Positions 55,167 through 63,111 of a DNA stretch of 64,000 nucleotides are shown piece after piece (positions within the stretch are counted from its first letter, which is position 1; each line of letters starts with the position of its first letter). The stretch is from Clostridia bacterium (GTDB taxonomy: Bacteria > Bacillota > Clostridia > JAAYHZ01). The stretch spans positions 352,001 to 416,000 of the forward strand of contig JBMNIH010000002.1 in assembly GCA_050950825.1 (NCBI GenBank), in the 5' to 3' direction. The notes below the pieces were generated by a model. The model worked only from the letters and a program-made list of their open reading frames with translations, was not told the origin of the DNA and did not search any database. Position numbers and translations under genes: made by a program.

Positions 55167-55535
55167 ATGGCGGATTTTGCAGACCGATGCGATTGTACGG
55201 TCATTCACGAAGATGTAGTGGAAAGAGTAAAAGAGGTTATGCCCGAGGAAGAGAACCTGTACGATTTGGCCGAGCTTTTTAAGGTCTTTGGGGATACGAC
55301 TCGGATCAAGCTCTTATGGGCTTTGGACAAGGAGGAAATGTGTGTTTGCGATTTGGCCATTTTATTGAACATGACCCAATCGGCCGTATCTCATCAGCTC
55401 CGCGTGTTAAAGCAAGCACGACTGGTTAAATTCCGTAGAGACGGCAAAAACGTGTATTACTCGCTGGACGACGATCATGTGAAGTTGATGTTCGAGCAGG
55501 GTTTGCTGCATATCAATGAAAAAGAACCGAAATAA
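55167..55535 (+). CDS. cadC: ArsR/SmtB metal-sensing repressor (CadC/ZiaR-like)
   Basis: N-terminal CDC..H, EMCVCDL, SAVSHQLR, alpha5 DDDH...H..E. Confidence 0.85.
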   Translation: MADFADRCDCTVIHEDVVERVKEVMPEEENLYDLAELFKVFGDTTRIKLLWALDKEEMCVCDLAILLNMTQSAVSHQLRVLKQARLVKFRRDGKNVYYSLDDDHVKLMFEQGLLHINEKEPK

Positions 55536-55563
55536 TGATGCGAACACCTGGAAAGGGGAAACT

Positions 55564-57768
55564 ATGACAAGAGGTCAACAGAACTTAACAAAAACAAAAA
55601 AACGCATCGGGGTCAGCTCTTCGAAGGCTACCCTTCCCAATGTAAAAAAGACATATACGGTCACCGGATTGGGCTGCGCTCACTGTGCCGAACGCATGGA
55701 AAGAGAAATCGGCAGATTAGCCGGAGTTAGCGAAGCTCGTTTAGACTTTGTCAACAAAAAACTCACCCTGGTTTTGGACACGGCCGAAGAGCTCGACCAA
55801 TTGAAAAGCAAAGTCCGAGCAATCGTTAAAAGAATCGAATACGGTGCCGATATTGACGATAAAGCTGAATCTCATGATCATGAACATGATCATGAACATG
55901 AACACCATGAAAGTCAAAACATTTGGCTTCTCGTGTCGGGTGCCGTCTTGTTTTTGGCCGCCGTTCTTTTAAGTTTACCTCAATTTCCGAAAATCCTTTT
56001 GTTTGCGGTGAGCTTGGTCCTCATCGGCGGTGAAATTTATGAAAAGGCCGTAAGAAACATTATACGAGGCCGGGTTTTCGACGAGAATTTTCTAATGAGT
56101 ATTGCTTCCATCGGTGCTTTTATCATCGGCGAATACGCCGAAGGCGTCGCCGTCATGCTGTTTTACCAAATCGGCGAATACGTGCAAGCCCGAGCGGTGG
56201 ATAAATCCCGCCGATCCATTGCTTCCTTGATGGATATCAAACCGGAGTATGCCAATCGTAAGGTCGGAAACGAAACCGTGAGGGTTGCTCCGGAGCAAAT
56301 AGCCGTCGGAGATTTGATCGTTGTGAAGCCGGGAGAAAAAATACCCTTAGACGGAACGGTTGTAGAAGGTACCTCCATGCTGGATACGTCGGCTTTAACC
56401 GGAGAATCCTTGCGCCAAGAGGTTTCGGAAGGCCATACCGTTTTTTCCGGATCCATTAACATGAACGGGCTTTTAACCGTGAAGGTAACCAAGCCTTACG
56501 GAGAATCCACCGTTTCCAAAATATTGGACTTGGTGGAGAATGCAAGCTCGAAAAAAGCGCCTACCGAAAACTTCATTACAAAGTTTGCTCGCGTCTACAC
56601 GCCTACCGTGGTAACCGTCGCGGCTCTTATAGCCTTCATCCCCCCTTTGGTTATAAAAGAAGCTCTTTTTTCCCAATGGCTCTACCGTGCCCTTGTTTTT
56701 CTGGTCATATCCTGCCCCTGTGCTTTGGTCATATCCATCCCCTTAGGCTTTTTCGGCGGAATCGGCGGAGCCTCGGCCAACGGAATATTAATAAAAGGAG
56801 GCAACTACTTGGAAGCCTTGAACCAAGTGGATACGGTCGTTTTTGATAAAACCGGCACGTTGACCAAAGGCGTTTTCGAAGTAGATAAAATCGTCACCTT
56901 CGGCAAGCTTTCCAAAGACGAGCTTTTAATGCTTGCCGCATACGCCGAAAGCTTCTCCAATCACCCCATTGCCGCTTCCGTTTTAAAAGCCTACGGTAAG
57001 ACCGTAGATAAAAACCTTATTTCCGACTTTAAAGAAACGGCCGGCTTCGGAATCGAGGCGTCCATTGAGGGAAAAAAGGTGTTGCTGGGTAATGAAAAAT
57101 TAATGAAAAAAGAGAAAATTTCTTTTACGAAGTCCGATGAAGCCGGTACGGTTGTTTACCTTGCCGTAGACGGCCGTTTCGAAGGATACATCGTCATATC
57201 CGACCAAGTAAAAGGCGACAGCAAAATAACCGTTTCCACCTTGAAAAAAAGCGGCGTAAAAAAAACCGTTATGCTCACGGGAGACAAGAAAGAGATCAGC
57301 GAAAGGATTTCGTCGGACCTTGGTATCGACCAAGTGTATGCCGAGCTTTTGCCTCATGAAAAGGTTAAGGTATTGGAAGACTTGAGCAAAAAGATTCCCC
57401 AAGGGAAAAAGCTTCTGTTTGTCGGAGACGGTATCAACGATGCCCCGGTATTGGCAAGAGCGGACATCGGAGTTGCCATGGGCGGATTAGGCTCGGATGC
57501 CGCCATCGAAGCGGCGGACATCGTTCTTATGACCGACGAGCCCTCCAAGCTGATCAGCGCTTTGCAAATCGCAAGCAAAACGCGAAGCATTGTATGGCAA
57601 AACATTATTTTGGCCTTGGGCGTTAAAGCCGTGGTGTTGGTCCTTGGGGCGGGAGGCATAGCCTCCATGTGGGAAGCCGTTTTTGCCGACGTAGGAGTCG
57701 CACTTTTGGCCATATTGAACGCTCTGCGTGTTATGAGAATCCGACCCGGAAAATCCTCCTTCATATAA
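55564..57768 (+). CDS. cadA: Heavy-metal (Zn/Cd/Pb) P1B-type ATPase
   Basis: GLGCAHC HMA domain, His-rich linker, TGES, CPC, DKTGT, GDGINDAP. Confidence 0.95.
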   Translation: MTRGQQNLTKTKKRIGVSSSKATLPNVKKTYTVTGLGCAHCAERMEREIGRLAGVSEARLDFVNKKLTLVLDTAEELDQLKSKVRAIVKRIEYGADIDDKAESHDHEHDHEHEHHESQNIWLLVSGAVLFLAAVLLSLPQFPKILLFAVSLVLIGGEIYEKAVRNIIRGRVFDENFLMSIASIGAFIIGEYAEGVAVMLFYQIGEYVQARAVDKSRRSIASLMDIKPEYANRKVGNETVRVAPEQIAVGDLIVVKPGEKIPLDGTVVEGTSMLDTSALTGESLRQEVSEGHTVFSGSINMNGLLTVKVTKPYGESTVSKILDLVENASSKKAPTENFITKFARVYTPTVVTVAALIAFIPPLVIKEALFSQWLYRALVFLVISCPCALVISIPLGFFGGIGGASANGILIKGGNYLEALNQVDTVVFDKTGTLTKGVFEVDKIVTFGKLSKDELLMLAAYAESFSNHPIAASVLKAYGKTVDKNLISDFKETAGFGIEASIEGKKVLLGNEKLMKKEKISFTKSDEAGTVVYLAVDGRFEGYIVISDQVKGDSKITVSTLKKSGVKKTVMLTGDKKEISERISSDLGIDQVYAELLPHEKVKVLEDLSKKIPQGKKLLFVGDGINDAPVLARADIGVAMGGLGSDAAIEAADIVLMTDEPSKLISALQIASKTRSIVWQNIILALGVKAVVLVLGAGGIASMWEAVFADVGVALLAILNALRVMRIRPGKSSFI

Positions 57769-57782
57769 AAATAAATGCAATG

Positions 57783-57816
57783 AGAAAAGGAGAGCTTTTA
57801 TGCTCTCCTTCTTTTT
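57783..57816. terminator. Terminator between cadA and zinc-ribbon gene
   Basis: aaggagagc-ttttat-gctctcctt. Confidence 0.75.
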
Positions 57817-57841
57817 GCAAATACAATATATAAAGCTTTAA

Positions 57842-58033
57842 TTAGCGTCTGTATCCGCCTCTGGCTCCGGTGCGATTGTCTCTGTTGTTTCTTTGTTGCT
57901 TTCTAGCTCTTCTGCAATCCGGACATCTTAAAGGTTCGTTCGTGAAACCCTTTTCTTTGTAAAATTCTTGTTCTCTTTCGGTGAATACGAAATTTGTTCC
58001 GCAATCCTTACAAGATAAAATTTTGTCTGCCAT
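57842..58033 (-). CDS. Small zinc-ribbon domain protein (zf-trcl-like)
   Basis: DKILSCKDCG..F.FT..EQEFY..KGF.NEP.RCPDCR. Confidence 0.92.
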   Translation of the reverse strand: MADKILSCKDCGTNFVFTEREQEFYKEKGFTNEPLRCPDCRRARKQQRNNRDNRTGARGGYRR

Positions 58034-58205
58034 TTGAAACCTCCATAATTTATCTGGATCTTATTGCCCGAACCACCATCTCCAAATGAATTAAAGAGGT
58101 TGTTTGAGATAATGAATCCATTTTTTCGCGCATAAGCGCGTAAATACATACTAACACGAAAAGATTAAGAATGCAATATGCTGTGAAAAATATTTTTATT
58201 TCCCA

Positions 58206-58742
58206 TTAATTTTTAGGTGGATTTTTCGTAGTTATGGGATTCATAACCATAACCATCGATTTGCCGTCCAAATTCGGCTTCTTTTCAAGAACTCCTACTT
58301 CTTTCAAGGCATCGGCAAATGCATTAAGGACTTCGTACCCGTTTTGGGTAAACTGCATTTCTCTGCCTCGGAATCGAATACTGACCTTTACTTTATCTCC
58401 GTTTTGTAAAAATCGATAAGCGTTTTTCACTTTAAAATCAAAATCATGTTTATCAATTTTTGCCGACAACCTTACTTCTTTTATATTCAGTATTGTTTGC
58501 TTTTTCTTTGACTCTTTTTCTCTTTTTGATTTTTCATATTGATACTTGCCGTAATCCATAATCTTGCATACAGGCGGCACCGAATTGGGTGCTATCTTCA
58601 CAAGATCCAAATTTTTCGACACGGCAATTTCCAGTGCCTTTTTAGGAGACATGACACCTAACATGGTTCCGTCTGCATCAATAACTCGGACTTCCTTATC
58701 TCTGATTTCTTCATTGATCATTCCGGTCTCGTTTTTCTTAAT
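58206..58742 (-). CDS. infC: Translation initiation factor IF-3, ATT start
   Basis: INEEIR, PPVCKIMDYGK, FRGRE; GGAGGTG 6 nt before in-frame ATT at 58742. Confidence 0.93.
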   Translation of the reverse strand: MKKNETGMINEEIRDKEVRVIDADGTMLGVMSPKKALEIAVSKNLDLVKIAPNSVPPVCKIMDYGKYQYEKSKREKESKKKQTILNIKEVRLSAKIDKHDFDFKVKNAYRFLQNGDKVKVSIRFRGREMQFTQNGYEVLNAFADALKEVGVLEKKPNLDGKSMVMVMNPITTKNPPKN

Positions 58743-58784
58743 ACTCAACACCTCCGCTAAGTTATATATTTTCATACCTCTTTC

Positions 58785-58813
58785 ATTATACCGCCTTTTA
58801 CTCCAAGTTTCAA
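58785..58813 (-). promoter_or_regulatory. Sigma-A promoter of infC
   Basis: TTGAAA-17-TATAAT. Confidence 0.7.
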
Positions 58814-58904
58814 TCGGTTCATGCCAATTTTGTACAGAACAACCAAAACGATTGAATTTCATAAAATTTTCAGCCGAAATTCCACTCCTTGATCGGTCGG
58901 CAAT

Positions 58905-58941
58905 AAAAAACGGCAACAAGGTTTTTCCCTTGTCACCGTTT
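58905..58941 (-). terminator. Intrinsic terminator after kamA-like gene
   Basis: aaacggtgacaagg-gaaaaa-ccttgttgccgtttttt. Confidence 0.75.
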
Positions 58942-58972
58942 GATTCATGCACAACGATCGGATAAGACAATA

Positions 58973-60094
58973 CTACTCTTTCGGATTCGGATAATAAAAG
59001 ATTTTCCCTTCAAAATTCCTTAATGTAACGCCTTCCTCCGTCATATCCACGATGTAATCACGGTTTACCGGTGTTTTTCCTCCCCCGCCGGGAGCGTCAA
59101 TCACGTACTCCGGCACCGCAAATCCCGTAATATTTCCCCTTATGCTCTTCAACATTTCCATACCCTTGGAAACCTTGGTACGAAAATGACCGATGCCTTG
59201 GGAGACGTCGCACTGGTACAAATAATACGGTCGGACTCGAATACTTACCAGCTTCAAGAATAAAGCCTTCAAAATTTCAGTATCGTCATTGACACCACGG
59301 AGAAGAACGCTTTGGTTCCCCAACGGGATGCCGGCATCCACGATTTTTCTGCAGGCTTCGGAGGACTCCTTCGTAATCTCCTTCGGATGGTTAAAATGGG
59401 TATTAATCCAAAGGGGATGGTATTTTTTCAGCATATTTAAAAGCTCGTCGGTAATTCTCATGGGCAGAACCACCGGCGTACGGGTTCCGATACGAATGAT
59501 TTCAACGTGAGGTATTTCCCTCACCTTTTTAATAATCCCCTCCAGTCGTGCATCGGGCATAACCAAAGGATCTCCTCCCGACAGCAGCACGTCACGGATG
59601 ACGGTGTTTTTGCGTATGTATTCCAAAGCCGCTTCCAGTCTTTTATCGCTTATGGAATAGTCTTCGCACCCTACCAGTCTTCTTCTCGTACAGTGCCTGC
59701 AGTACATGGAGCACTTATGGGTCAGCACCAAAAGCACCCTGTCCGGGTATCGGTGGACCAGACCCGGTACGGGAGAATATTTCTCTTCGCAAAGAGGGTC
59801 TTCTCGTTCACAAGGGTCGATGATGAGCTCCTTGGCGGAAGGTATCGCTTGTTTTCGGATCGGACAATCCGGATTGCTGTCGTCGATAAGTGCCGCGTAA
59901 TACGGCGTAATGGCCATTTTAAACTTTTGCAGGCATTTTTCAATGTCTTCTTTTTCTTCCTTCTTCAAGTGAACGATTTTGCTTAGTTGCTCCGTATCGG
60001 TAATCCGATTCTTGATTTGCCATTTCCAATCGTTCCAATGCTCAAGGGAATAATCCTTCCATATTTGTGCTTTTTCATTCTCATCCATTATCAT
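58973..60094 (-). CDS. kamA: KamA family radical SAM, lysine 2,3-aminomutase type
   Basis: HRYPDR, CSMYCRHCTRRR, LSGGDPL, NQSVLL, YQCD, DAPGGGGK; ATGA overlap with upstream ligase. Confidence 0.88.
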   Translation of the reverse strand: MIMDENEKAQIWKDYSLEHWNDWKWQIKNRITDTEQLSKIVHLKKEEKEDIEKCLQKFKMAITPYYAALIDDSNPDCPIRKQAIPSAKELIIDPCEREDPLCEEKYSPVPGLVHRYPDRVLLVLTHKCSMYCRHCTRRRLVGCEDYSISDKRLEAALEYIRKNTVIRDVLLSGGDPLVMPDARLEGIIKKVREIPHVEIIRIGTRTPVVLPMRITDELLNMLKKYHPLWINTHFNHPKEITKESSEACRKIVDAGIPLGNQSVLLRGVNDDTEILKALFLKLVSIRVRPYYLYQCDVSQGIGHFRTKVSKGMEMLKSIRGNITGFAVPEYVIDAPGGGGKTPVNRDYIVDMTEEGVTLRNFEGKIFYYPNPKE

Positions 60095-61125
60095 TCGCCT
60101 CGATTCGGGTTCCATGGTTTCATACCATATCTTTCCAATGCACAGTTAAAAACGCTCAGTATCAATTCCTTGTAACTCATTCCGCAGAATTCCGCTATCA
60201 TGGGATAATCGCTGTAGGAAGGAGCCAAACCCGGCAGCGGGTTGATCTCGATAAAATAGATGTCTCCTTGGTCCGACAGACGAAAATCAATCCTCGAAAA
60301 ATCCCTGCAGCTTAAAACCCGGTGAATCTTTAAGGCGGTTTCTTTCATTCTGTTGTTTGTTTCATCGTCCAATAAGGGAGGGCAGATGTATTCCACATAG
60401 TCCTTGTAATGGGTTTTTACATGGAAACTGTAGATACGATTTTCTCGTCCTTCTTTCAAGTAGCGAATTTCCATCGGCTCAAAGGCGCGGGCATTTTCCC
60501 CGTTTCCCAAAACGCCTACGGTGAATTCTCTTCCCGATATGAATTGCTCGATCAGCATGGGCTGACCGTACAGCTTGAAATTTTTATCCAGTACGGCTTT
60601 CAGTTCTTCCGCGTTATCAACCACCGCCGTTTGGCCTATTCCCTTTCCGGAGCCTTCATGGTTCGGTTTCACGATCAAAGGAAAGGTTAACCCCGGACCT
60701 TCTTCGATACTCGGCGATTTCGCCAATCGATAATCCGGGGTTTGTATATGAAACGTAGATAAATAGCGTTTTGTAATCTCTTTATCCAACGCCATAGCCA
60801 AAGTCGTTTCATCGGATCCGGTGTAAGGGATTCCCAAATAGCTTAATATGGCCGGAATATGAGCTTCCCTTCCTCTGCCGTTCGTGCCTTCGGCTATGTT
60901 AAACACGATATCCGGTTTTGCTTCTTTCAGTCTTTCCACAATATCCGCATCCGCTTCAAAAAGCTCCACTTTATAGCCTTCCGAGAGAAATACGTCCCGT
61001 ATTGCGGCTATTGTGTCAAATGAATCGTACTCCGCTTCGATATCGTCTGCTTCGGAGATAACGCCTTTTTTCAGGTTATACGTTATACCGACAGACGGAA
61101 GCGGAGGTTTTGTTTCGTTTTCCAT
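60091..61125 (-). CDS. D-Ala-D-Ala-ligase-like ATP-grasp enzyme (divergent)
   Basis: FNIAEG, PYTGS, LIVKP..EGSGKGI, GREFTVG, RIDFR, FIEINPLPG. Confidence 0.88.
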   Translation of the reverse strand: MENETKPPLPSVGITYNLKKGVISEADDIEAEYDSFDTIAAIRDVFLSEGYKVELFEADADIVERLKEAKPDIVFNIAEGTNGRGREAHIPAILSYLGIPYTGSDETTLAMALDKEITKRYLSTFHIQTPDYRLAKSPSIEEGPGLTFPLIVKPNHEGSGKGIGQTAVVDNAEELKAVLDKNFKLYGQPMLIEQFISGREFTVGVLGNGENARAFEPMEIRYLKEGRENRIYSFHVKTHYKDYVEYICPPLLDDETNNRMKETALKIHRVLSCRDFSRIDFRLSDQGDIYFIEINPLPGLAPSYSDYPMIAEFCGMSYKELILSVFNCALERYGMKPWNPNRGE

Positions 61126-61475
61126 CTATCATCACTCGCCCATCGTAATAAATTAAGGTTTTTTCACCCTTCATCAGCCCATTATAGCACCGGGAATATG
61201 AAAAGAAACAGCGGAAAAAAGCCTAATCCATACGTTTAAACAACTGTATACCGGTTTTAGTAAAGGGCCTTCCTGTCTCGCGGTCTATCTAGTTCACGCC
61301 TATTCTTCGTCAATCTTTTAAAAATGGTACTATATATAGTGGATTTTTCCGGTCTTTGCTTAAAAATTTTTACTTGCTTTGTATTTGTATTTTTTTTTAT
61401 GGTAATTGTACAAATACGGTGTATAATAGTGTTAATATTTATTCTTTCTTCAAAATAAGAAAGGAGTTCATATCC

Positions 61476-62489
61476 ATGAATCGTAAAGCGAATGTAGCAG
61501 TTATCGGGGCGGGCGGAATCGCCAACAACGTTCATTTGCCCTCGTTATCGGAAATTGAAGAAGCCAATGTGGTAGCCGTATGCGACCTTCATGAAGAAAG
61601 AGCCAAAAAGGCTGCCGAAAAGTACTCCATCCCTGCCGTATACACCTCCATGTATAAAATGTTCGAAAAAGAAAGCCTAGACGGAGTTTTCGTGTTGGTT
61701 GAGCCGGACCGGCTCCACCGAGCGGCTTACGATTGCTTGAGCGCAGGTCTTCATGTGTTTATGGAAAAACCTGCAGGGATAACGTCCTACCAGGCTCGTT
61801 CTTTGGCGCGAAAAGCGGAGCAAACGGGCAAAACCGTTGCGGTAGGCATGAATCGAAGGCACATTCCTTTGGTTCAAAAAGTGTTTACCATGATGAAGGA
61901 AATTACACCCATAACCCAAGTCGACGGGGTTTTCATGAAAAACAGCAATATTGCAAACAGCTGGCACTACATGAGCGCATTCGTATGCGACATCATCCAC
62001 GCCACGGACTTGGTTCGATATTTTGCAGGGTCGAAGCCGACAAAAGCGGCAACCGTAGTCGCAAGGAACAACTCCCCTGTCGATAACGCTTGGTCCTCCG
62101 TCATTATGTTTGAAAACGGAATTGTGGGTACCCTTCGGTCCAACTACCAAATCGGCGGCCGCGTACATAGCTTCGAGATTCACGGGCCTAAAGCCAGTGC
62201 CTTTATTAACTTAGGATTCGGCGGCAACGAATGCGAAGCGAAGATTTTGTATGCCTCCGGAAAACCCATCTATTCTTTGGCCGCCGCCGGAGTATCCAAG
62301 CTTGCCATGGAGCATTTGGACGGAAAAGAAATCGCCGGCACCGATGCTTTCTATGCCTACTACGGCTACAAGCAGGAAGACAAAGATTTCATCAACTTCC
62401 TTTTAACCGGCCAAAAGCCTTTATGTACCATCGAGGATGCCGCCGAGACGATGGAAATGGCGGAAATGCTTTTAAACAACACGATCTAA
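61476..62489 (+). CDS. Gfo/Idh/MocA family oxidoreductase
   Basis: IGAGGIA, MEKP, DIIHATD; AAGGAG SD. Confidence 0.9.
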   Translation: MNRKANVAVIGAGGIANNVHLPSLSEIEEANVVAVCDLHEERAKKAAEKYSIPAVYTSMYKMFEKESLDGVFVLVEPDRLHRAAYDCLSAGLHVFMEKPAGITSYQARSLARKAEQTGKTVAVGMNRRHIPLVQKVFTMMKEITPITQVDGVFMKNSNIANSWHYMSAFVCDIIHATDLVRYFAGSKPTKAATVVARNNSPVDNAWSSVIMFENGIVGTLRSNYQIGGRVHSFEIHGPKASAFINLGFGGNECEAKILYASGKPIYSLAAAGVSKLAMEHLDGKEIAGTDAFYAYYGYKQEDKDFINFLLTGQKPLCTIEDAAETMEMAEMLLNNTI

Positions 62490-62508
62490 GAAAAAGACTT
62501 TGAGGAAT

Positions 62509-62552
62509 ATAAAAAAGAAACGTTATGGCATTTCATGGCGTTTCTTTTTTAT
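62509..62552. terminator. Bidirectional terminator
   Basis: aaaaaagaaacgttatg...catggcgtttctttttt. Confidence 0.7.
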
Positions 62553-62577
62553 CGCGTTATTTTATTCCCGTCTTTCC

Positions 62578-63111
62578 TTAATTCAATACCTTCGCTTCCG
62601 CATTTTCTTTCTTTTGCCGATCAAATCGAATCATGCCCACAATGATGGATGACATGACGAATATTTCGGTAATGATCCCGGCATAAGATCCTTTCACGAT
62701 ATTGTAGGTAATCCACAAAGGAGATACCGGGAACGTGACTCTTCGTACATAGGTAGGATTGTCGAGCCAAAAGCCTAACGAGCCTAACACCATTCCTAAT
62801 ATGGGGAACAATGAGAAGATGTCTTCCCAAGTCAAAATCCCCGCTGCAATGGACACGGCCATAAATAAGAAAAGCCACCCTTTATGTCTTGCCCAAGTAT
62901 GCTTTTGCTTTTGGTAATATACGATGTTTCTTATGACGCTGACCACGTTAAGAGCCGCACCGGTGTAGGCACCTAAAAATAAAAAGTGAACGGCAAACAG
63001 GCATCCCGCCAAGAGCTGGAAGGTCAAAATCCCTTTTTTCGTGTTGTTCTGAAAAGAAATGATGGCCATAAGCAGGGCTACCCCGCCAATGACCTGCGCA
63101 ATGATTTCCAT
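62578..63111 (-). CDS. YgjV-family inner membrane protein
   Basis: AQ.IG, SFQ, HFLFLGAYTGA, WITYNI..GS..G; start could be GTG 63120. Confidence 0.8.
   Translation of the reverse strand: MEIIAQVIGGVALLMAIISFQNNTKKGILTFQLLAGCLFAVHFLFLGAYTGAALNVVSVIRNIVYYQKQKHTWARHKGWLFLFMAVSIAAGILTWEDIFSLFPILGMVLGSLGFWLDNPTYVRRVTFPVSPLWITYNIVKGSYAGIITEIFVMSSIIVGMIRFDRQKKENAEAKVLN

Follow-up and report, generated by a model that had tools for sequence, protein, structure and literature searches.

What does a ligase of the D-alanine–D-alanine ligase (Ddl) family do beside an enzyme that makes beta-lysine? The question is raised by two overlapping genes in a 64,000-nucleotide (nt) stretch of the genome of an anaerobic-digester Clostridia bacterium (assembly GCA_050950825.1, contig JBMNIH010000002.1, positions 352,001 to 416,000 of the forward strand), here called the window, in which a divergent ATP-grasp ligase is coupled to a short lysine 2,3-aminomutase (KamA). 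Both belong to textbook enzyme families, and to our knowledge beta-lysine has three known fates in primary metabolism, namely, fermentation, conversion to an acetylated osmolyte, and modification of elongation factor P (EF-P). A preliminary description of the window had proposed that the ligase joins beta-lysine to another amino acid or acceptor, giving a noncanonical peptidoglycan dipeptide, a compatible solute, or a protein modification. We conclude that the pair is a real, widespread, and uncharacterized variant of beta-lysine metabolism, a two-gene pathway resembling AblA/AblB but with a different second chemistry. Our favored reading, in which we place moderate confidence, is that KamA would make (3S)-beta-lysine and that the ligase would incorporate it, through an amide bond, into a soluble compound.

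The unit consists of the following features.

60091-61125, minus strand: ligase open reading frame (ORF), 344 amino acids (aa), a Ddl-family ATP-grasp protein of the KamA-associated subfamily that we call ligase A
58973-60094, minus strand: short KamA/AblA-type lysine 2,3-aminomutase, 373 aa when read from the overlap ATG
60091-60094, minus strand: ATGA stop/start overlap indicating translational coupling, read from the sequence
58908-58941, minus strand: intrinsic-terminator-like hairpin (stem, loop, and T-rich tail) closing the two-gene unit
61181-61189, minus strand: candidate extended -10 element TGcTATAAT, 56 nt 5′ of the ligase start, found by eye

Arranged head to tail, both on the minus strand, the two ORFs form a self-contained two-gene operon. 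At their junction (minus strand, GGCGAATGATAATGG) the ligase stop TGA (60093-60091) overlaps the in-frame KamA ATG (60094-60092), with a GAGG 3 nt 5′ of the ATG at 60094. The KamA ORF as listed spans 58973-60115, and its alternative ATG at 60115 has no GAGG-like site; we take 60094 as the start because the KamA alignments of relatives begin at residues 1-3 of the 373-aa form. The overlap and the terminator 3′ of the pair (hairpin at 58941-58908) thus stand as first described, and the motifs cited at that stage (YQCD and VIDAPGGGGK in KamA, EADDIEAEYDS and IYSFHVK in the ligase) are all present in the translations.

A lysine-type mutase and a Ddl-like ligase

The window KamA scores 551 bits against TIGR03820, the AblA equivalog model (cut-off, 525.4), and falls under the cut-offs of the models for glutamate 2,3-aminomutase (481/650), arginine 2,3-aminomutase (433/600), and EpmB (TIGR03821, 269.6/369.3). 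Over residues 6-371 it is 64% identical to 2A5H, the Clostridium subterminale enzyme and its only solved relative, and it keeps the CxxxCxxC motif together with R134, D293, D330, and K337. Its CSMYCRHC aligns with C125/C129/C132 of 2A5H, and its VIDAPGGGGK aligns with VVDAPGGGGK; the cysteines C128, C132, and C135 and the position of the pyridoxal phosphate (PLP) lysine, K340, are invariant in 35 relatives, as are D296 and D333 (D293 and D330 in window numbering) in 35 ligase-linked KamAs. We take R134, D293, and D330 to hold the alpha-carboxylate and epsilon-ammonium of lysine, the two Asp residues binding the epsilon-ammonium, and K337 of the GGGGK motif to be the PLP-binding lysine. Glutamate mutases carry other residues at the two lysine-type Asp positions. 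With the AblA model passed, the glutamate model failed, and D293/D330 kept, the earlier assignment to the lysine rather than the glutamate type is upheld, and KamA very probably converts free L-lysine to (3S)-beta-lysine.

The two-gene unit encodes a particular form of this enzyme. In the Clostridium enzyme, C268 and a three-Cys C-terminal tail presumably make up a zinc site, which as far as we know is a feature of the long form and not a catalytic requirement. This site has no counterpart in the window KamA, in which C268 is replaced by Asp and the chain ends near residue 370 of 416. The three-Cys tail occurs in none of the 52 listed KamAs directly downstream of a ligase, whose ORFs end 0-23 residues after the match (this listing leaves out four loci with KamA matches of <340 residues, L038, L039, L042, and L057, which are partial matches or contig ends), and a CxCxxC or Cx3CxxC tail occurs in 18 of 20 KamAs unlinked to the ligase. 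Judged by these counts, the missing tail is a property of the ligase-linked class and not an accident. A tree built from 55 KamAs (quick search under LG+G4, with the Eam-like protein of locus L162 as root) agrees, placing 31 short ligase-adjacent KamAs in one clade (Shimodaira-Hasegawa-like approximate likelihood ratio test [SH-aLRT] value, 99) and the long ones, including the fermentative and GNAT-linked types, in another (98). The rooting protein (L162, 4852-6150, minus strand) is a KamA-family member with IVNGPKGLGK instead of DAPGGGGK, Asn at the D330 position, and no Cys tail, and it looks like the glutamate-2,3-aminomutase type.

The ligase matches PF07478, the Ddl C-terminal domain (135 bits), and has no Pfam match to PF01820, the Ddl N-terminal domain. 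It scores below every NCBIfam Ddl cut-off (best NF002378, 203.2/243; TIGR01205, 172.5/245.65) and far below the cut-offs of all Van models. An AlphaFold2 (AF2) model built from 35 relatives is confident (predicted local distance difference test [pLDDT], 87.7; predicted TM score [pTM], 0.88), and the solved structures closest to it in fold are Ddl and VanA (Foldseek E value, 1.7e-28; TM, 0.76/0.86; sequence identity, 22-30%). In a structure comparison, Ddl and VanA come first (Z, 28-33; root mean square deviation, 2.1-2.8), followed by LysX/ArgX (Z, 23.7), an L-amino-acid ligase (22.2), and RimK (22.2). A profile-profile alignment of the ligase family with 20 canonical Ddl sequences reaches a probability of 100% over 288 columns at 31% identity; our statements on residue conservation rest on the 35-row ligase-family alignment and the 20-row canonical Ddl alignment. 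Ligase residues K115, K153, S159, E193, E200, K237, R278, D280, E293, and N295 align with invariant Ddl columns, and we take them to serve ATP and Mg binding and the acyl-phosphate step (phosphate-binding Lys, Mg ligands, and transition-state Arg). The same alignment gives the following replacements elsewhere.

Ddl His (H62): E79 in the ligase family
Ddl GEDG loop: GRGRE in the ligase family (R84, R86, E87)
Ddl invariant Gly of GSG (G86): D105 in the ligase family
Ddl P-loop Ile/Val: K161 in the ligase family
Ddl omega-loop Tyr: T238 in the ligase, variable in the family
Ddl Ser-Leu pair (L283): S305-D306 in the ligase family, only the Ser kept

Across the 35 family members, the new residue is in most cases invariant or conserved to 90% or more. 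In Escherichia coli Ddl, we take H63, Y216, and S281-L282 to be substrate-site residues, and the N-terminal GGxSxExEVS motif presumably binds the first D-alanine (D-Ala1). The canonical consensus is GGxSxEREVS, with G9, G10, S12, and E14 invariant in the 20 canonical sequences; no counterpart is alignable in the ligase, where the profile alignment starts at residue 35 and an acidic N-terminal stretch takes the place of the motif (E32 invariant and D28 and D34 near-invariant in the family). The preliminary description had noted both the loss of the D-Ala-binding N-terminal motif and an altered omega loop, and both readings hold: PF01820 is not matched and the motif is unalignable, and the loop reads IYSFHVK, and T238 aligns with the omega-loop Tyr. 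The ligase is thus predicted to be catalytically active, forming amides by ATP-grasp chemistry, but from substrates other than a pair of D-alanines. The new acidic residues at both Ddl side-chain sites would fit cationic side chains, such as that of beta-lysine.

The host genome (11 contigs, 97% complete) encodes a canonical Ddl on another contig (G000:C3:355709-356716), so that the window ligase is not the host's Ddl. The canonical enzyme scores 370.4 bits with TIGR01205 and 252.7 with PF07478, and the window ligase scores 172.4 with the former model. We placed the ligase in a tree of 123 sequences, comprising 29 canonical Ddl proteins (from 29 Bacillota genomes including the host) and 94 noncanonical ones (quick search with SH-aLRT as the only support; four loci with partial ligase matches not included). 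Phylogeny against the Ddl clades set the window ligase apart, with 93 noncanonical ligases split from the 29 canonical Ddl proteins (99). The window ligase falls in a 60-row clade (99), in which 53 rows have an adjacent KamA, and in the 80-row ligase A clade (99), which also includes L086_A and L081_A. The clade sister to ligase A (99) contains the second ligase found in larger cassettes. The KamA tree runs parallel to that of the ligases; for example, the window groups with L013-L017, and L045 with L079, in both.

Some other Ddl-like ligases have different neighbors. A sister subfamily in L128 and L137 (Bacillota/Clostridia) has no KamA and adjoins genes of the octopine/nopaline-dehydrogenase family (PF02317, 153-180 bits), an arrangement that may represent a different amino acid conjugate pathway. 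In L129 (3879-6020), a 714-aa fusion of a Ddl-like ligase and an M20 peptidase is flanked by gamma-glutamyltranspeptidase (GGT) and N-formylglutamate amidohydrolase (FGase). An unlinked long KamA lies three genes from the canonical Ddl (PF07478, 254.9 bits, plus PF01820) in L143 (8780-9874, minus strand), from a genome whose ligase A is an orphan; this proximity is probably coincidental.

Conservation of the ligase-KamA pairing

A pattern scan of one genome per species returned 591 related stretches, of which the best 80 were studied. KamA is present in 63 of these loci. In 56 it follows the ligase directly, with 3-128 nt separating the matches; in 3 it immediately precedes the ligase; and in 4 deltaproteobacterial loci it lies ∼3.9 kb downstream. 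Together with the fusions described below, these counts establish the conservation of the neighborhood, which the preliminary description had named as a check. Whole-genome searches of ten genomes with an orphan ligase found KamA elsewhere in 9. An even sample of Clostridia yielded a ligase match (E ≤1e-60) in 24 of 251 genomes and KamA in 66 of 250 (one was unscorable); KamA is present in 22 of the 24 ligase-positive genomes versus 44 of the 226 others, counts that are descriptive rather than a test and that relatedness inflates. All 16 genomes with a ligase above 440 bits carry KamA, as the next gene in 13 (KamA frames of 377-411 aa, with one cut at 206 aa). Ligases of the lower tier (255-342 bits) are not part of the ligase A clade and have other gene neighborhoods.

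The association extends to single polypeptides. L081, labeled Victivallales, encodes one 825-aa protein with KamA at the N terminus and the ligase at the C terminus, and both domain sets occur in 32 of the 120 best clusters found with this fusion as the query, under the source names Syntrophobacteraceae, Desulfoferrobacter, Deltaproteobacteria, and Candidatus Magnetoovum. KamA precedes the ligase in P0246, P0248, and P0264, and in a 944-aa metagenome protein (P0282) the ligase sits between an N-terminal peptidase S51 domain and a C-terminal KamA. That fusions exist in either domain order argues strongly for a single pathway served by both activities. When a natural KamA-ligase fusion was folded, both domains were confident, the linker was not (residues 401-475, pLDDT <50; pTM, 0.51), and no fixed domain arrangement was predicted, a result that is neutral as to binding between the two.

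Larger cassettes are also found. The gene order in L086 is KamA, ligase A, ligase B, and GNAT, and that in L066 and L074 is ligase A, a two-component system, KamA, and ligase B. The window therefore carries a minimal form within a large family of related cassettes: its ligase is orthologous to ligase A of L086, but only a single ligase is present, a GNAT is missing, the ligase gene precedes that of KamA, and KamA is truncated. A third conserved gene was sought by clustering the ORFs of 81 loci, and beyond the pair only generic families recur, namely, histidine kinases (18 loci), ABC ATPases (17), and response regulators (7). A link to osmoprotectant importers was dropped, as only one ABC ATPase (in L069) has CBS domains. 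Cultured isolates are represented among the related loci by Caproicibacter fermentans EA1 (L015) and Papillibacter cinnamivorans DSM 12816 (L040). Carriers of the pair include the diderm lineages Victivallales, Omnitrophota, Sedimentisphaerales, and Thermodesulfobacteriota, and one nearest Atlas protein cluster is 66% archaeal, which we treat as a lead only.

Ligase A is found inside 684- to 854-aa proteins annotated with ATP-grasp domains only in Myxococcota (L082-L092, labeled Kofleriaceae, and the 120 best long homologs, P0121-P0240); these loci have no KamA within 6 kb, and KamA is encoded elsewhere in 3 of 3 genomes checked.

Candidate products and competing explanations

We propose that the pathway runs in three steps. 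In the first, well supported by homology, the short KamA, a radical S-adenosylmethionine enzyme with a [4Fe-4S] cluster and PLP, would turn free L-lysine into (3S)-beta-lysine; KamA is placed before the ligase because the residues by which it would grip free lysine, at the alpha-carboxylate and the epsilon-amine, are conserved in it. In the second, the ligase would use ATP to convert a carboxylate to an acyl phosphate and couple it to an amine. Beta-lysine is likely to be a ligase substrate, and it would be one substrate or possibly both, so that the product would be a beta-lysine-containing amide, i.e., a dipeptide or isopeptide. The third and weakest step holds that the product would be soluble, e.g., compatible-solute-like or polyamine-like, rather than a peptidoglycan precursor or a protein modification. 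Granted a beta-lysine substrate, we regard a soluble small molecule as rather probable because a separate Ddl exists, no wall or target gene lies beside the pair, carriers include diderms, and a second ligase and an acetyltransferase are present in some related cassettes. Translational coupling in the window and fusion elsewhere would keep the two activities at a fixed ratio.

As to the identity of the product, E79, D306, and E32/D34 lead us to guess that at least the amine-donor substrate, and perhaps both, has a cationic side chain. The simplest candidate would then be beta-lysyl-beta-lysine or a beta-lysine/lysine dipeptide; the homodipeptide is the most economical guess, since Ddl links two molecules of the same amino acid and a unit of two genes would then require no further special substrate. 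On the other side, the invariant R84, R86, and K161 would equally suit an acidic partner (Glu or Asp). The S51 peptidase fused in P0282, of the dipeptidase E/cyanophycinase family, hints at a hydrolyzable dipeptide or isopeptide.

The known routes of beta-lysine offer both likenesses and differences. In AblA/AblB, which makes the osmolyte N-epsilon-acetyl-beta-lysine in methanogens and some bacteria (KamA-YodP in Bacillus), a mutase likewise stands beside one dedicated beta-lysine-derivatizing enzyme, and the window KamA passes the AblA equivalog cut-off. However, the AblA partner is a GNAT and that in the window is an ATP-grasp ligase, the window KamA lacks the three-Cys tail and falls in a clade apart from the GNAT-linked KamAs, and the product would be an ATP-dependent amide instead of an acetyl amide. 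Lysine fermentation (kamA, kamDE, kdd, and kce) starts with an enzyme of the same family, but the window KamA belongs to the other, short clade. EpmB/EpmA also combines a KamA-family beta-lysine maker, in short form, with ATP-dependent joining to an amine; EpmA, however, lies outside the ATP-grasp family, being a paralog of lysyl-tRNA synthetase (LysRS), and EpmB produces the (R)-isomer of beta-lysine, whereas the window KamA resembles the (S)-forming Clostridium enzyme. Ddl/VanA-type ligases share with the window ligase the fold and the ATP, Mg, and transition-state residues; the window ligase differs from them in its failed cut-offs, missing PF01820 match, replaced substrate-site residues, separate clade, and linkage to KamA.

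The partner enzymes of these routes, which had been reported as not adjacent to the pair, were also not found genome-wide. The best AblB match in the host genome (TIGR03827) reaches 23.8 bits against a cut-off of 205.1 and lies on another contig. For EpmA (TIGR00462), the top score is 250.5 (cut-off, 286.9) and belongs to a 511-aa frame, probably LysRS; the EpmB cut-off is likewise missed. Kce (PF05853) had no match in the 97%-complete genome. KamD (PF09043) had no match in the host genome, and control genomes also gave none; the model does detect KamD in L145, L147, and L149 (917-936 bits, hmmscan), where long KamAs stand beside KamD, zinc-ADH-like, and MutS-like proteins. Long KamAs adjoin 277-aa GNATs in L151, L152, and L159-L161. 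Since these known contexts were seen in other sampled genomes, the method can detect them.

Four other explanations deserve comparison with a soluble beta-lysyl amide. The one that survives best, although we consider it unlikely, is that the ligase does not use beta-lysine and that the genes are co-inherited for another reason, e.g., because the ligase makes an unrelated dipeptide or because KamA feeds an unlinked enzyme. Loci with a ligase and no nearby KamA agree with this, as does the company kept by the sister ligase subfamilies (opine-dehydrogenase family genes in L128 and L137; M20 peptidase, GGT, and FGase in L129). It is difficult to square, however, with one-polypeptide fusions in both domain orders, with the presence of KamA in 9 of 10 orphan-ligase genomes and 16 of 16 top-tier ligase genomes, with parallel trees, and with a specific truncation common to the ligase-linked KamAs.

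A role in the cell wall, in which the ligase would build a noncanonical peptidoglycan block or cross-bridge containing beta-lysine, is in our view quite unlikely. The nearest solved folds and sequences of the ligase are all Ddl/VanA, and an amino-acid-isomerizing enzyme beside an ATP-grasp ligase has a cell-wall precedent in the racemase and D-aspartate ligase pair of Enterococcus faecium. However, the genome has its separate Ddl, the Ddl residues for D-Ala recognition are replaced, mur and other wall genes neither flank the pair in the window nor recur in the 81 loci, and the pair is present in diderm phyla, with the mostly archaeal Atlas cluster pointing the same way as a lead.

More doubtful still is a protein modification, by which the ATP-grasp ligase would put KamA-made beta-lysine on a protein, the Lys of the EF-P KPGKG loop being the obvious candidate, in an EpmA-independent route analogous to EpmB/EpmA. 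The modifiable lysine is present in the KPGKG loop of the host EF-P, no EpmA above the cut-off was found in the genome, KamA is short and tailless, like EpmB, and the next structural neighbors of the ligase after Ddl, RimK and LysX/ArgX (Z, 22-24), are ATP-grasp enzymes that modify proteins. KamA nevertheless exceeds the AblA cut-off and stays far below that of EpmB (269.6 versus 369.3), the patchy distribution of the ligase, found in 24 of 251 sampled Clostridia genomes, is unlike that of a core modification of a translation factor, no conserved candidate target gene was seen beside the pair in 81 loci, and the second ligase and GNAT of L086 fit stepwise small-molecule assembly better. It is very unlikely that KamA acts on something other than free L-lysine, either another basic amino acid or a lysine already joined by the ligase, for although the short KamAs form a distinct truncated clade and the family includes members of other specificities (the glutamate and arginine models; Asn at D330 in L162), R134, D293, and D330 are identical to those of 2A5H at 64% overall identity, D296 and D333 are invariant in 35 ligase-linked KamAs, and the AblA cut-off is passed.

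Several observations weigh against a soluble beta-lysyl amide made by the pair. KamA is absent from the fetched DNA of 17 of the 80 related loci, of which at least L063 and L067 are cut off too early to judge, from 1 of the 10 orphan-ligase genomes, and from 2 of the 24 ligase-positive Clostridia genomes, both of which carry low-tier ligases that are probably nonorthologous. The region that holds the D-Ala1-binding Glu of Ddl is not alignable in the ligase, whose substrates are not readable from sequence, the substrate-site mapping being a profile alignment combined with roles attributed to Ddl residues. The 81 loci share no neighboring gene for a transporter, regulator, or stress protein that would suggest an osmolyte, and the host EF-P offers the lysine noted above. 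As to expression, each of 4 digester metatranscriptome runs has mismatch-free contigs (151-350 nt) that map to the two genes within 59647-61152, which gives a hint only that the operon is transcribed: they are a handful of low-depth contigs, RNA libraries can contain DNA, and no RNA contig of the four runs bridges the gene junction by at least 31 nt. At this low depth the contigs leave 61181-62600 (the upstream intergenic region and the neighboring oxidoreductase gene) uncovered. Near-identical DNA occurs in 14 sludge, digester, and bioreactor metagenome runs, which are possible source runs and so not independent.

The proposal that the ligase joins beta-lysine to an acceptor thus stands in part. 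The use of beta-lysine is backed by the lysine-type KamA, the separate Ddl, the conserved and fused pairing, and the failure to find the other routes. Among the three products first offered, the peptidoglycan dipeptide fares worst against the distribution of the family (diderm carriers and archaeal relatives), and a soluble amide is the one that we would prefer.

Operon signals, neighboring genes, and implications

The terminator hairpin has 14 pairs (6 G-C), a 6-nt loop, and a T-rich tail, and it starts 32 nt past the KamA stop. Terminator-like sites number 9 in 58000-62000 versus a mean of 4.7 in shuffles, and the site at 58941-58908 appears credible from its stem length and position and not from the site count. 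A strong promoter-like site with 11/12 matches (58813-58785) lies 3′ of the terminator and precedes infC. On the other side, 5′ of the ligase, a 350-nt A+T-rich spacer is followed by a divergent GFO/IDH/MocA oxidoreductase gene. The TGcTATAAT at 61189-61181 was not listed by the promoter scan and lacks a good -35 hexamer, and it is put forward as a candidate element of the ligase promoter only. No Rfam match to a riboswitch or leader was found in 57500-62000 at E values up to 1, and neither the ligase nor KamA was matched in a defense-system search (PADLOC).

The oxidoreductase (61476-62489, plus strand) is 84% identical to its counterpart in the closest locus, L013 (4574-5611, minus strand), which has the same arrangement and a ligase of 73% identity. 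Among the related loci it is conserved in L013 only. It is not in the same place in L015, where the upstream ORF is of a different size, and its placement is probably local synteny outside the unit. Beyond the terminator lies infC (IF-3; 58206-58970, minus strand), the listed 254-aa ORF of which starts at a far-upstream TTG; the true start is probably a noncanonical codon near 58730, because the IF-3 domains begin only at residue 81-85 of this ORF. A 63-aa treble-clef zinc-finger protein (PF13451, 86 bits) is encoded at 57842-58033 (minus strand) between infC and the gene for a P-type ATPase. At 55167-57768 (plus strand), by eye, the gene for a 122-aa ArsR/SmtB-like regulator overlaps the start of the gene for this 750-aa heavy-metal P-type ATPase, the translation of which contains a His-rich stretch and a CPC motif.

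In the open-access literature searched, we found no description of a pair of KamA and an ATP-grasp or Ddl-like enzyme or of a dedicated ATP-grasp beta-lysine ligase; PMC11201294 concerns ablA/ablB only, and a preprint on negamycin has no ATP-grasp enzyme. If our reading is true, the pair would represent a fourth fate of beta-lysine, ATP-dependent amide ligation. It would not be a rare one, given the 591 related stretches, the ligase in about 1 in 10 sampled Clostridia genomes, and the fusions in several phyla. Should the ligase prove instead to be a protein beta-lysyl ligase, it would constitute a convergent, EpmA-independent route in anaerobes to a beta-lysylated translation factor or other protein. 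The ligase could also serve as a biocatalyst for peptide bonds of beta-amino acids. Knowing the product would give a function to the thousands of genes that now bear the names "D-alanine--D-alanine ligase family" or "ATP-grasp domain-containing," would stop such ligases from being taken for cell-wall or vancomycin-type enzymes, and might bring to light a new solute or polycation in anaerobes of digesters and the gut.

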